Shown: in pieces, positions 10,836 to 31,800 of the stretch
Layout of the letters: every line of letters starts with the position of its first letter
How positions within the stretch are numbered: position 1 is the stretch's first letter
NCBI GenBank assembly: GCA_039621445.1
Contig: CP154954.1
Span: 23,572,954 to 23,636,953 of the forward strand
DNA: 64,000 bases
DNA from: Euglena gracilis
Lineage: Eukaryota
Direction of reading: 5' to 3'
Notes under the pieces: model-generated
Databases searched by the model: none
Told to the model about the DNA's origin: nothing
What the model saw: the letters and a program-made list of their open reading frames with translations, nothing else
Made by a program: the position numbers and the translations under genes

Positions 10836-13800
10836 CAGGGGCCGAGGCAGAGCGCCGCTGCTTCTTCCCCTGAGCGCCGGGTGGCGCGAGGCCGTGGGTC
10901 ACCTGGGGGCAGGGCTGAATGTGGACGAGTCCTTCCCTCCCTCCCAGTGAGAGTGGTAGCCCCGCTTGTGTAAGAACTGTAAAAGCTGGGTAAGGACCGG
11001 GGAGGGGTGCTCAGACAGGGGGAGGAATCCCCGACATTTTTTCTCTTTCGCGCCGAAAAAAAAAAACTTCATTTTGGGGTTTTATTCTTGCCCATCTTTT
11101 CAAAAGGTTCCGAAGTCAAACTATTCTCTGAATTTCTTTGCAAAAAATCTTCAAAGTTTTGGATTTTGCAGAATTTTCAAAAGATTGATTGGGTGAGTTA
11201 CTGTAGATTTTCTGCATCTCAACGCCTTTACTTTGGAGAATCTGGGGGCTGGTGCCCAGACACGGTGCTTTGGCAGGGGGGAGGTGAGGTGATAGAAAGT
11301 GAAAGGCCTCTCCAAGACCTCACCCCCGCAGTCCTGCATGGGGTGAGCCAGGACGTCCCAGCTCAGTTACCTCTCACGCACAGCCCTGCGCGGTAGTTCG
11401 GGTTGCCGGGCTGCATACTGCGGGGCTCTGCCTTCTTCACATCCACCCGCTGCCCCAGCACCTGTCGCCGGGCCGCCAATGAAAACGGGCAAGCGAGACA
11501 GGGCCCTTCAATGCTGCGCATCTCCAACTCCATTTTTTTTGTGTTCCGGTTTGAAAATGAAAACCATTGCTTGGATCTCTCCGCACCACATTCTCCAGAA
11601 TTTGCATTTTGGGCTCCAATTGGTTTGCTTGTTGACACATTATATGCAGGTGCCCGATGCATCAATTGTGTGGCACGATGCACAGGGCTGCTTGGCTGGG
11701 AGGGGGCGAAACCAAATGGGATGGAAAGCGAACGGCGTTCTCCGCGTGGTCCTCCGACTCGAAGACAACAAACCCGCAGCCCTTCGGCCTTTTCGTGACT
11801 TTGTCGTACACAATCTCGCAGTCCACGATCTGGAGCACGGCAGTCAGGGGGGAAAGGGCAACACAAAGAGGGGATCACCAATGGATGATTGGCGATTGAA
11901 TTTCAACTCAACGTCTGTTCCGATTTCAGACTTCCCTGGTCCTCTTGGGGGCTGTTAATTGAAGTTAGAGGACATTTCATTCCCTGCGACAATGGTATTT
12001 GCTGTATAATCCATCTATCCATCCATACATTTCGACACTTACATCTGGATAGCTCTCATCAGATACAATTATTGCCTTGGTTGAAATGTAAATGGAGGGT
12101 TAATTTGAGGACAGGGCCAGTCAAAGTTCCTCTGGGGGGGGTCTTTTTTATATTGAGCACTTTGATTGTGCAGTTTAGATCCCACCTACTGATAAAGATA
12201 GGGTGCATGTCTTTTCAATTTGGGGGAGAGTACGTTACGTTCTTCAGATATTTCTGATGGAGTCTTCAAAGCAGCCATCGATCTAATACTCCCCACGAAC
12301 GGCGGACAACCCAGGAGGAGGGTGAGCAACGAGGATTGCACACATAGACGATGCGATCGGCCCGCAAAGCGGCGTCGACAGGGGTGGCCGAGTCCCCAAC
12401 GGGGATCGTGCGTTGCGCCGGAGCGAAATGTCACGCCAAAGCCGCCACCGCCGTGTGCACGACGCCCCACAGGGCCTCCAGGTAGGCCGGGTGAATGGCG
12501 TCCACCCCGGCCTGCCACACCCCCTCCCAGTCCTCCGACAGGGAATCGTGAAATGACCTTCCGGGGGGGGGGGGCCATACTACTGCTTACCGACGACCCC
12601 TGGGCAGGGGAAGGGGGGGGTCACTTTCCACTTCCAAAAAAAACCAGTCAGTTCATTTGAAAATCCAGTCAATCACCCACTTCCACCCCCCCCCCGGGGG
12701 TATCGGTCACTTTAGCCACTCGGGCCAAAATGGTTCAAAACCAATGGATTTTGGCCAAAAAAAAGCACAAAAACCTCCGGTGCCTTTGCCGCCGGGTGGC
12801 ACTTTTGGCCATTCCTGGGGGGGGGGTCCGGAGCCAAAAAAAAAAAAAACAGACAATCACTCAAAAAAACAACCAGTCAGTCACCCCCAGGGGTCGGCCA
12901 CACCTTGCGCAAAGTGTAATGTGTTTGGGGTCCAGCTCACAGGCTGGAACAAGGCAGCTTGGCTGGCTGGACCCCCCCCCCCCGGGAGGGATGAGGGTCC
13001 ACTGAGGCTTGAGCGATGCCCTGTCCTCCGCCACCCGCTGCCGTACCTCCTCCCGGACTGCCAGTACGCCGTCCATACCAGCCGCCGGGGCTCCTGTGGG
13101 GCAGACCGTCCTCCGATGGCAGCACATGTTGAGTGTGGCACAAGAGACCGGCAGATGAGGAAAGAAGAACAGACAGGTGCGTAGGGGGACAGACAGGGGC
13201 GTAGTCAGAGGGACCCCGAGTGAGGCAGTCCAGGCACTGGGCAGCGCTTGCCACGCCCAAAGCTGAATGGAAATGATGGAGGGGGGCCTTCACAAGGATT
13301 GTATGTGTGAATGGGTGTGTGTGGGTGGGTGGCTGGCTGGCTGGGTGGGTGGGTGGGTGGCTGGGTGGGTGGGTGGGTGGGTGTGGGTGTGTGTGTGTGT
13401 GTGTGTATGCGGGTGTATGCATGTGTGTGGGTGGGTGGGTGGGAGGGTGCGTGCGTGCATGCGTGTGGGTGGGTGGTGGGCGTGTGTGTGGGTGGGTGTG
13501 CATGTGTGTGTGTGTGTGTGTGTGTGTGTGTGTGTGTGTGTGTGTGTGTGTGTGTGTGTGTGTGGGGGTGTGTGTGTGTGTGGTGTGTGTGTGTTTGTGT
13601 GTGTGTGGTTGTGTGTGTGTGTGTGTGTGTGTGTGTGTGTGTGTGTGTGTGTGTGTGTGTGTGTGTGTGTGTGTGTGTGTGTGTGTGTGTGTGTGTGTGT
13701 GTGTGTGTGTGTGTGTGTGTGTGTGTGTGTGTGTGTGTGTGTGTGTGTGTGTGTGTGTGTGTGTGTGTGTGTGTGTGTGTGTGTGTGTGTGGGTGGGGGG

Positions 13801-28800: not shown

Positions 28801-31800
28801 AGTGCCGGTGGCTGGCCATTTGCGTGGGGAGGAGGAAGGGGGTGGGGCTGAGGCACGAGGACACCGGGGAGTGGGAAAGAAAGGGGGGGGCCGCGCCACA
28901 CCGAGCCAGGGACCGGGGGCAACGTTGCGGAGGACACCGGCATTGGGTTTCACCGCCCGGCCGACACACCACAACGCCAGGCTTTCCAGCCAGCAGCTCG
29001 TAGCTGGGCTACGGACCCCCCCCCCCGGGGGGTCGAACGGTAATAAAGTTTCACAGCCTACAGGCCGGTCGACTGGCACGTCTCCAGGCATGCACCACGC
29101 CCCTGAATGGCGAAGCCACCGGCGGAAGGCGGCGCACACCCGTCCAAACTGCTGGAAGTGCTCCCACAGGACCTCTGTGGTGGCGGTGGGCGGCAACGCC
29201 CCGATGAAGATCCGCCGCGTCCGCATCACCGTCGCCAGCTCCTCCTCTGCGGACCCGCAACGGGAGGGGCCCGGGAACGGAGGCACTTCAACCATTTCCC
29301 GCCCAGAGGCTACAGCGCCCAGTCAGCCCCCTGGAGGGAACTCTGAGCTGACTGACGCTGAAGGTGGTGCGATGAGTTGCTTTGCCCAACTAAAGCGATG
29401 GGGGGGGGCCACTTGCCGTCCCTGGCCGACGTTTGGCCTCGCTGCAGCTCATTCCCACGGAAGGGAACACAAATGCAAAAGCAGAAGCGTGACAGCCGTC
29501 CATCCAATAGGCAAGTTAACTCTCGGCTGTATGGAATGGAAAGATGGTTCTCGTTCTTCTTTTGAGCGTTTGGCTGGGGGCGGAGGACCAGTTGACCAGG
29601 CAAAGGCGAGGGGGGAGCGCGCAGAGGCTGGGGAATGAGGCGCACCAGGGACTGCACTCTTCACGTCGAGGGTGTTCCCCTGCAATGTGTGGGCATGCAC
29701 CATCGGCGACAAGAAACGGGCGTTGACGAGCGGCGTGCCACCCCGGGCTCTGTTTCATCCGTCCCAGGTGGGTCTTGGACTCCCCAGTCCCCCCCATTCT
29801 GAGTAAACAAAAAAATTTCCCATTGATCATTTTTTTTATCATTTCCACAAATTTTCGAGTGCTTGGAGCCAGAATTTTCTTTAGACTCGCGCAAATAACA
29901 CACTTCCCACCACTGAATCGAGACAAAAGATAAACCTGTTATACCGTTTGGAAACCTTTTAGAAGCATATGCTGCACCATTTGGTGGGGGGTTTGACTCA
30001 AAGGGTTACGTGCAACTGGACGCGATAAAAACATCAGAAGTGTGTTTCATCCGTCCTCACAATCCAAAACCAGAAACAATTTTCTTCCACAGAAAACAAC
30101 AAAAAACAGGTGCAGGGGTGCAAAGGAGAGGGGCAAAGAGCATTCCCGCCCCAAGTTCTGTGCCCAGAAATACCAAAACAAAATTGTCTCCTCCGGCGGA
30201 AGTTTTCCTTCAAAGCCTGTGCCACCCTGGGATCGGGGCGCGACCAGACGACGGCGCCTCGCAGCCGTTCCTGGGCAGTCCGTTGCGCACCGCCTCCTCC
30301 GGGCTGGTAAACGTCACGAAGCCAAAGCCCCGCGACTTGCCATCCTGGACGACGACGCGCGCCTGCTTCACCTGGGGGGGCAGGGCGGTGTGGCGGTGAT
30401 GCACGCGTCTGCCTGGGGTGGGGGGGGGGGGGGGGGGGGGTGGGGGGGGCCAGCTTGCAGCCTTTTGGACTCAACCACTGGCGGTTGGCAACAGGGTCAT
30501 CGGTGAAGGCGTCCTTTGAAAAGCCAATGAGCATTACTGTTGGGCAATCTTGCACTGACCTCTTGTTAGTCGAAGGACCAAGAAGGCGACCGAATCCGTT
30601 GCCCAGCGAAATGCAGGAGACGGTGAAGAAAGAAGATAGCCAACTGGACCGCATTGGTTTGAAAATTTAGAGTGGTGGAGGGCCCATGCACCTCTTTTCC
30701 AAAAACCATGTGCCTGCGGCCTCGGCATGAGCCCAGCCAGAGATAGAATAAAAAAAATGCAATCACCAACACACCTCACCGAAGCGCAAGAAATAGTCCC
30801 GGAGGTCCTCATTTGTGGTGGCTCTGTTCAGCCCGCCGACGAAATACATACCTGGCAGACGGCGGGAAAATGGATTCGGAAAATCCCTGCTTCGGTTTGA
30901 TCCATCCGCTCCCGAGCCAGCTCTAAAGGCTTGGACTGCGTTTGATTTCAGTGGAGCTGTTCGGCCCTCCCGCCACCTCGGAACAGAAAGCCCCCCCCCC
31001 TCGTCACTTGGCCATGGGGTGTGGTCCAAACCCAGAGCCACCGGACTGCTGGCCGAACTTGGAGCGGGAACCCTCTGCCCGTGAGGCACAAACCCCCGAT
31101 ACTGGGGTTGTGATGCACAGAAAGCCAACTTTGGGGCACTGAGGGCGACCCCAAAGAAGGGGGAGGCAGCGCGCGGCGGTGTGAAGAGGGGGGCCGACCG
31201 GTGACGTCCTGCGCCCGGCGGGGCTTCTGGCCCGGGAGGGGGAGCGGCGCCGGCGGCCCGAAGGCGGCCGCCGCGCTGTCCCAGTGCGTCGTCCCCAGGG
31301 CTGTACGGGGTGGCTTGGGGGGGGGGCGACCAGGCTGTTTCTTACCCACCGGGGGGGGGGGAGGGGGGGTCCGGAGTGCCTGTGAGTGCCTGCCCAGGCA
31401 GGCACCCCCCCCCCTGTGTGCACTGTGGCTGTTTTTTTTTGGTGCTTTTTATCCCTTCTTCTGGCCAGGCGCTGTTGTTCGCCTCTGGCCCTTTTTGTCT
31501 GTGTACGTGGAGGTGGCCGGACCCCAACTTAGTTGGGTCGGCACCCAACTAAAAAACAGCCTGGGGGCCACCCTCCAACCTGGAGGTGGGGGATCGACCC
31601 CCCTCCACCCACCACAACATTTTCACAGATTTTTTTTTACAAATCCACCCGGTGGTGGATTTGGCAGTGGGAAAAAAATTTGGGGTTGAAAATTGGTGCT
31701 CCCAGAAATACGGCATGAGGTGGTGGGGAGTGGTCGACCGCCCCCTCACCCACAATGCAGGAGGTGGGGGGGGTCGACCCCCCACCATACAATTTTTTAC

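Follow-up and report, generated by a model that had tools for sequence, protein, structure and literature searches.

The window analyzed here is a stretch of 64,000 nucleotides (nt) from Euglena gracilis (contig CP154954.1 of assembly GCA_039621445.1, positions 23,572,954 to 23,636,953 of the forward strand), and positions are counted from its first letter. On its minus strand lies a gene for a protein with four RRM domains. The mRNA of this host gene is cis-spliced over a GT..AG intron of 17,310 nt, skipping an inner gene that is located within the intron and has the same orientation. A separate spliced mRNA with its own ATG is produced from the inner gene, as established for its first nine coding exons. 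We assign a probability of roughly 0.6 to the reading that the locus is a same-strand nested gene pair, in which a cis-spliced host surrounds a separately expressed, leader-capped gene for a HAD-kinase protein that starts below the host donor.

The host gene and its 17.3-kilobase intron

The host protein, P0001 (eukprot:EG_transcript_8216, 472 amino acids), was retrieved by a word-based protein search with the exon 11829-11713 as query and was placed on the minus strand by exact 6-mers. Its residues 1-445 correspond to 15 collinear exons that run from 35555 down to 10837. Pfam identifies RRM_1 (PF00076) in four stretches of P0001 (E 4.3e-63, 209.5 bits, compared with a cut-off of 20.7). The best of these stretches, residues 337-397, matches profile positions 1-61 and is read as one domain. 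The host gene comprises the following parts.

29646-35555, minus strand: host exons 1-11 (RRM1-3 and linkers); ATG at 35555; exact 6-mer map of P0001 and the RNA joint 29703>30276
29140-29246, minus strand: host exon 12, the RNP2 half of RRM4; RRM_1 profile 1-24 of 70 (E 2e-4); P0001 residues 325-360; complete codon before the GT donor
11830-29139, minus strand: host intron 12, 17,310 nt, conventional; starts with GTGTGC, ends with a C-rich tract and CAG; junction reads
11713-11829, minus strand: host exon 13, the RNP1 half of RRM4; RRM_1 profile 25-57 (E 1.7e-8); P0001 residues 361-399
11461-11393 and 10905-10837, minus strand: host exons 14 and 15; P0001 map

The initial annotation had split RRM4 between 29140-29246 and 11713-11829 by a phase-0 GT-AG pair, and these coordinates proved exact to the base. 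The borders read CGG/GTGTGC ... CTCCAG/ATC, in phase 0. The intron has the features of a conventional intron, with GTGTGC at 29139-29134 and ...CCGTGCTCCAG at 11840-11830; the E. gracilis GT-AG consensus consists of a GTGTG 5' end, a C-rich tract, and CAG (PMC11170887). The length of the intron is more than twice that of the longest of 28,337 introns surveyed in E. gracilis (8,197 nt), a survey made on a fragmented draft assembly in which long introns may have been missed; among its 11,527 GT-AG introns, the mean length is 512.5 nt and the longest measures 8,197 nt (PMC11170887). The other 13 host introns in the window measure 148-844 nt.

A search for sequencing runs that contain the stretch listed 24 runs, and none of the holders listed is on record as RNA. 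RNA data were represented by X15, a contig set that we guess to be RNA, and by X21 and X24, raw RNA read runs found by species label, of which about 5-6% each was sampled. These and a DNA contig set, X1, were compared as four runs with window positions 26700-30599. In X21, 14 reads run past 29140 into nonadjacent sequence with a median overhang of 82 letters, and one X15 contig does likewise with an overhang of 187 letters. The 30-letter consensus of the overhangs (agreement 1.0) occurs once in the window, at 11800-11829, directly at the acceptor. Because these reads and the contig join 29140 to 11829, the host mRNA skips 17.3 kilobases (kb). The joint had been set beforehand as one check on the nested arrangement, and the same junction reads into exon 13 rule out that transcripts end after exon 12. 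X24 shows no loose end at 29140, with 25 of its reads placed in all.

The neighboring host joints are likewise present: 29246>29646 in 11 X21 reads, one X15 contig, and one X24 read, and 29703>30276 in three X21 reads and one X15 contig. P0001 is unbroken across the junction of exons 12 and 13, and RRM4 is also unbroken in the orthologue P0002 (438 amino acids, 83% identical over the query). A tblastn search with P0001 did not reveal another RNP1 half within the 17.3-kb intron.

Pairing between the two ends of the long intron is unremarkable: by a crude unconstrained duplex measure, 131 of 150 random window segments pair with its 5' end as well or better, and its 30-nt end-pairing z score is +2.2. 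The last 27 residues of P0001 have no coding match in the window on either strand, and the C terminus of P0002 is similar to that of P0001. The host may thus contain another very long intron (>10.8 kb), or its 3' end may differ at this locus.

The transcript-supported part of the inner gene

P0003 (eukprot:EG_transcript_27820, 224 amino acids), retrieved with the query 28305-28132, maps to the minus strand as nine coding exons from the ATG at 28819 to 25059, with 5 mismatches over 222 residues. The 5' part of the inner gene is arranged as follows.

28848-28850, minus strand: CAG acceptor, candidate leader addition site; end of an X15 contig; about 290 nt downstream of the host donor
28745-28847, minus strand: nested exon 1, a leader-proximal untranslated region (UTR) of 28 nt followed by the ATG at 28819; P0003 residues 1-25; joint 28744>28304
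28308-28240, 27416-27363, 27204-27088, 26921-26898, 26810-26694, 26140-26039, 25474-25400, and 25100-25059, minus strand: nested coding exons 2-9 (HAD-like domain), approximate; P0003 map and pieces of X15 contigs

The joint between inner exons 1 and 2, 28744>28304, is present in one X15 contig (depth 227) and in three X21 reads, and in no X24 read. A single X15 contig contains both 27200-27089 and 26808-26700, separated by 24 unplaced letters, as the small exon predicts. That micro-exon, 26898-26921, has 24 nt (8 codons) and lies between nonconventional introns of about 166 and 87-90 nt. The shorter of the two shows the strongest end pairing of the 22 introns tested (z -3.1). In X21, the first mate is mostly on the plus strand across both genes.

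Past 25059, the reading frame of the window runs into a stop without encoding the last two residues of P0003, and the transcript must therefore be spliced onward; P0003 is probably a fragment of a longer transcript. At position 28257, in inner exon 2, all four runs (RNA and DNA) have T and the window has C, so the source of the window differs there from those strains.

The 5' end of the inner gene lies within the host intron, with a contig end at 28848 and the ATG at 28819, compared with the host donor at 29140. The X15 contig of the inner gene does not extend into host exon 12. Instead, one X15 contig stops at 28848 and continues, on the RNA strand, with a nongenomic TTTTC followed by letters that we take to be Illumina adapter sequence. 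With the shared G at 28848, the inner mRNA starts ...TTTTCG and then CCCCACC. In the E. gracilis leader, the conserved 3' end reads TATTTTTTTTCG, and TTTTC plus G fits the last 6 of its 12 conserved letters (PMC4778363). Outrons of E. gracilis share the C-rich tract and CAG with cis-introns (PMC11170887). Among the loose ends listed for raw reads, none is at 28848. The contig gives weak support to a 5' end made by leader trans-splicing at the CAG 28850-28848, and the leader acceptor that had been proposed near 28849 gains modestly from this one X15 contig and its TTTTC, five letters in all.

Two kinds of introns

For each junction, every codon split that reproduces the transcript protein was enumerated. 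Ten of the 14 host introns can be placed as GT..AG, the long one included. No GT..AG or GC..AG placement is possible for any of the eight transcript-supported introns of the inner gene (Fisher p 0.0017 versus the host). At the published 57% share of nonconventional introns, eight in a row have a probability of 0.011, if they are independent.

Pairing between the 30-nt ends distinguishes the two groups: the mean z score is -1.25 for nonconventional introns (n=12), compared with +0.40 for conventional introns (n=10; Mann-Whitney p 0.006). Such end pairing is a described hallmark of nonconventional introns, whose splicing takes place after both conventional cis-splicing and leader trans-splicing (PMC6221363). 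With its first eight introns nonconventional, the inner gene would offer the spliceosome no decoy sites over that stretch. A count of CAG behind pyrimidine tracts was an unusable measure, because it missed both real acceptors.

The probable downstream part of the inner gene

A phmmer search with P0003 against 1.84 billion representatives (cut-off E <= 0.001) yields 25 proteins of 139-2,134 amino acids, P0003 included. Named homologues come from Apiculatamorpha, Lacrimia, and a record labelled Hpha, which is presumably Hemistasia. When ten of the P0003 homologues were compared with Pfam, a family match was found only in P0006, a metagenome-derived protein of 1,281 amino acids. This protein combines an HAD-like N terminus with an actin-fragmin-kinase domain (Act-Frag_cataly, PF09192, residues 500-662, E 9.1e-17, 61.8 bits, compared with a cut-off of 24).

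P0006 is collinear with the minus strand in six places. Residues 27-57 match 28323-28231, residues 175-210 match 26143-26036, and the remaining four places are residues 273-316 near 23.9 kb, 529-564 near 21.3 kb, 633-659 near 15.6 kb, and 761-779 near 12.5 kb. Nine segments between 25059 and 12431 stand out by codon usage, as scored after training on the window's 664 known codons (GC content at third codon positions 0.84). When these are scored against P0006 and judged by the maximum of 20 shuffles, four of the nine exceed all shuffles, and those four are in order. Candidate features of this part are listed here.

23798-23959, minus strand: candidate nested exon, conserved 'VHFRP..HKVLP' region found after the HAD-like domain in homologues; P0008 E 1.2e-6, P0024 E 3.8e-5; P0006 273-316, 27.3 bits versus a shuffled maximum of 19.6; codon-bias score 42.9
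21164-21334, minus strand: candidate nested exon, N-lobe of the actin-fragmin-kinase-like domain; P0006 529-564, 26.6 bits versus a shuffled maximum of 21.6; weak Act-Frag_cataly match (E 0.15, 11.9 bits, profile 55-87)
15464-15622, minus strand: candidate nested exon, catalytic-loop region of the kinase-like domain; P0006 633-659, 32.0 bits versus a shuffled maximum of 18.5; codon-bias score 44.6
12431-12541, minus strand: candidate last nested coding segment; TGA stop 12433-12431; P0006 761-779, 20.8 bits versus a shuffled maximum of 17.3; codon-bias score 26.0
11830-12430, minus strand: spacer of 601 nt, defined from sequence, which must hold the nested 3' UTR, the poly(A) site, the host branch site, and the 3' splice site

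Seven other downstream segments have no direct Pfam match to Act-Frag_cataly, and a comparison of ten stop-to-stop pieces of the inner gene with Pfam yielded nothing at E <= 0.1. Plus-strand open reading frames of at least 110 codons inside the intron have the appearance of GC-rich or repeat read-through.

The inner gene is best read as probably one gene, with an HAD-like and an actin-fragmin-kinase-like part, extending from 28819 to the stop at 12431. The initial annotation had placed a same-strand gene at 28819-12431: its start and first nine exons, as far as 25059, are borne out by transcripts, and the remainder to 12431 is traced by homology and codon bias. The roughly 25 exons that had been counted are plausible, and nine are confirmed in the first 222 codons.

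The HAD-like label

Assignment to the HAD superfamily was judged by a Rossmannoid core and by the motifs DxDxT, S/T, K, and an acidic motif IV. An alignment of 14 homologues shows no variation at K148, D168, and N169 and almost none at D31, D33, T35, and G77. Pfam gives DUF2608 alone for P0003, at E 0.36 and below the cut-off. An AlphaFold2 model of the HAD-like part has a mean predicted local distance difference test score of 75.4. A Foldseek search of this model against PDB returned no match at E <= 0.001, and several of the top weak rows are HAD enzymes. In a wide VIA fold search, nearly all of the top 50 hits belong to the HAD superfamily by title, with Z scores of 5.3-7.2, middling by the tool's own rating. 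The predicted fold and the motifs are consistent with the HAD superfamily, short of establishing membership.

Weighing the explanations

We infer that inner transcripts begin downstream of the host donor. An inner acceptor without an upstream cis donor would then take the leader, whereas on host precursors the donor at 29140 would pair with the acceptor at 11830. The first eight nonconventional introns of the inner gene would give the spliceosome no decoys along the way. A start below the host donor is favored because all 14 donor-crossing X21 reads reach exon 13, and because the joint 29140>28847 is absent among the 15 of 28 joints listed. Inner mRNAs that start below the host donor account for this pattern of donor reads no less well than competition between the two modes of splicing does.

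Perhaps, as the initial annotation suggested, both mRNAs are cut from a shared precursor, and the inner gene has no start of its own. Addition of the leader at 28848 and of poly(A) near 12.2 kb would then destroy the host transcript, unless the donor at 29140 waits for 11830. Host transcription must in any case traverse the inner gene, and X21 has about 11-14 junction reads for the host versus 3 for the inner gene (a rough figure), which a minority processing path would allow. In nematodes, however, a trans-splice acceptor becomes a cis acceptor when a donor lies upstream of it; if Euglena follows that rule, an acceptor about 290 nt below a strong donor would be expected to be cis-spliced, and the donor-crossing reads, all of which reach exon 13, do not show this. 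The E. gracilis literature points both ways. Outron and cis 3' splice sites form one consensus (PMC11170887), and leader addition, like conventional cis-splicing, comes before nonconventional splicing (PMC6221363), but Ebenezer et al. judged extensive polycistronic transcription unlikely in the sparse Euglena genome (PMC6366073). We regard a shared precursor as doubtful. A more elaborate form, which we hold to be unlikely, is a processing switch: each host precursor would either receive the leader at 28848, yielding the kinase-phosphatase mRNA and aborting the RRM protein, or undergo the 17.3-kb cis-splice. The inner gene would be tolerated through its at least eight nonconventional 5' introns, which are removed after the spliceosomal phase, and the host RRM protein might bias the choice.

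Several observations weigh against a leader-capped, single inner gene. The evidence for the leader comes from one contig and five nongenomic letters. Transcript support for the inner gene ends at 25059, and from there to 12431 the gene is traced by homology and codon bias. Five of the nine codon-bias segments fail to exceed the P0006 shuffles; two weak matches to P0006, at 23395-23315 and 18609-18559 (E 0.43 and 0.15), are out of order; and a word-based protein search with 15437-15859 found no match among 3,226 candidates. A C-rich tract and CAG precede some of the downstream candidate exons, and conventional introns may occur further down the inner gene.

Diplonemid and other euglenozoan homologues of 340-420 amino acids without a kinase also count on that side, and they make two separate inner genes in the same intron a possible reading of the sequence. 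One gene would encode an HAD-like protein of about 350-420 amino acids and end near 23-22 kb, and the other would encode a kinase-like protein between about 21.3 and 12.4 kb. Such a division is suggested by P0007, P0008, and P0024 (341-420 amino acids), which lack the kinase domain, by a 4.4-kb stretch without coding signal from 21164 to 16786, and by the fact that no transcript joins the HAD-like and kinase-like parts. However, P0006 unites the two domains in a single protein and runs collinear with the window, neither another ATG nor another leader site was identified, and the 4.4-kb gap falls within the kinase domain rather than between the domains. Two inner genes seem quite improbable.

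The nested arrangement might also be an artefact of assembly or haplotype, with the inner gene not truly between exons 12 and 13, or present there in only one haplotype or copy. High-copy repeats are abundant, with a DNA word depth of 48,149 at 28520-28649 versus about 63-100 in flanking sequence. P0003 and the window disagree at 5 of 222 residues, whereas P0001 is nearly identical to the window, and P0003 may come from another allele or copy. The comparison with DNA contigs covered the 5' side of the intron (26700-30599). Even on the 5' side, the two X1 contigs concerned overlap by 27 letters at a repeat formed by a C run and a G run, so no single DNA record bridges it. Nonetheless, these independent contigs, 28986-29782 (797 letters) and 28657-29012 (356 letters), cover host exon 12, the donor, and the inner start with zero differing letters. 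Collinearity of the inner exons extends over 16 kb, the intron has good consensus sites at both ends, and 14 DNA runs contain a fraction of 0.77-0.81 of the sampled words of 26000-35700. Misassembly is unlikely, and an artefact of any of these kinds appears highly improbable.

Repeats and neighboring sequence

Very high-copy elements occur in the inner introns, with X1 word depths of 12,509 (27220-27349), 2,272 (27480-27609), and 48,149 (28390-28649). The depth is 972 at 28910-29039, and flanking sequence has about 63-100. Many of the high-copy elements pair a C run with an adjacent G run, for example near 29020, 12990, and 12695. Long GT/CA-type microsatellites are found in the introns of both genes, at 13317-13921, 14140-14295, 21497-21629, 26543-26683, and 33.5-34.0 kb; the microsatellite at 13610-13791 lies inside the stretch 13317-13921.

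Positions 1-7900 of the window form a composite satellite with units of about 1.3-1.5 kb, each of which contains an internal 66-bp tandem array (2.5-7.2 copies, 86-96% matches). The composition of this satellite is skewed, with a GC skew of 0.10-0.18 and an AT skew of 0.16-0.21. On the plus strand at 38951-39734 is a frameshifted remnant of a Tc1/mariner-type transposase in two overlapping frames, with Pfam matches to HTH_Tnp_Tc3_2 (E 1.1e-12), a PAX-like HTH (E 2.6e-5), and HTH_SB (E 1.6e-4).

Comparison with other nested genes

Genes nested in introns are widespread among animals. In Drosophila melanogaster, nested genes likewise include inner genes that are wholly contained in a same-strand intron, with the host spliced across and separate mRNAs produced (Lee and Chang 2013, PMC3814207). 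In that species, opposite-strand cases make up 71.27% of nested genes, and of the same-strand cases 72.53% consist of one exon, a pattern interpreted as selection against mis-splicing. Same-strand, intron-rich nested pairs are the rarest class in animals, which is usually explained by their splice sites disturbing host splicing (PMC3814207). Unlike most of the same-strand cases in Drosophila, the Euglena inner gene has at least nine confirmed exons, and probably about 20 or more. Also unlike Drosophila, Euglena adds a spliced leader to many of its mRNAs and has two kinds of introns.

In nematodes, leader trans-spliced genes are found inside introns or operons, including cha-1/unc-17 of C. elegans. 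As proposed for the Euglena locus, an internal 3' splice site of a larger same-strand unit receives the leader and sets the 5' end of a second mRNA. In contrast, unc-17 shares a 5' exon with its host, and no shared exon is seen in the Euglena pair.

Kinetoplastids, to our knowledge, are almost devoid of cis-introns, and a gene inside a cis-spliced intron therefore cannot arise in them. Their mRNAs resemble the inner mRNA in that they are cut from long precursors by leader addition at an AG following a pyrimidine tract (in part from PMC6366073). The difference is that polycistronic transcription is not known for E. gracilis.

P0006 has the domain order proposed for the inner gene, in addition to its six collinear segments. 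It differs in having about 500 extra C-terminal residues that lack a counterpart in the window, and its 4,695-nt contig, which holds a protein of 1,281 amino acids, has almost no room for introns. Most homologues in the euglenozoan HAD-like family (Apiculatamorpha, Lacrimia, and Hemistasia) do not carry the kinase.

No description of nested genes in euglenids was found in the literature searched, where supplementary intron and gene tables may list such cases, and the word 'nested' is absent from PMC11170887, PMC6366073, and PMC12501133. The Euglena pair is well documented and of a known kind, the same-strand nested gene; its many exons place it at the rare end of that kind. At this locus, as transcripts support, a single donor has to pass over an apparently functional acceptor close by and await another that is 17 kb away. 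It raises the question of how a trans-splicing cell keeps two same-strand nested genes apart. Euglena adds complications, in that its leader acceptors resemble cis acceptors (PMC11170887) and a second class of introns, which is not spliceosomal, is removed later (PMC6221363). Because Cas9 editing has been reported for E. gracilis (PMC13142649), the choice between cis-splicing and trans-splicing is directly testable at this locus.

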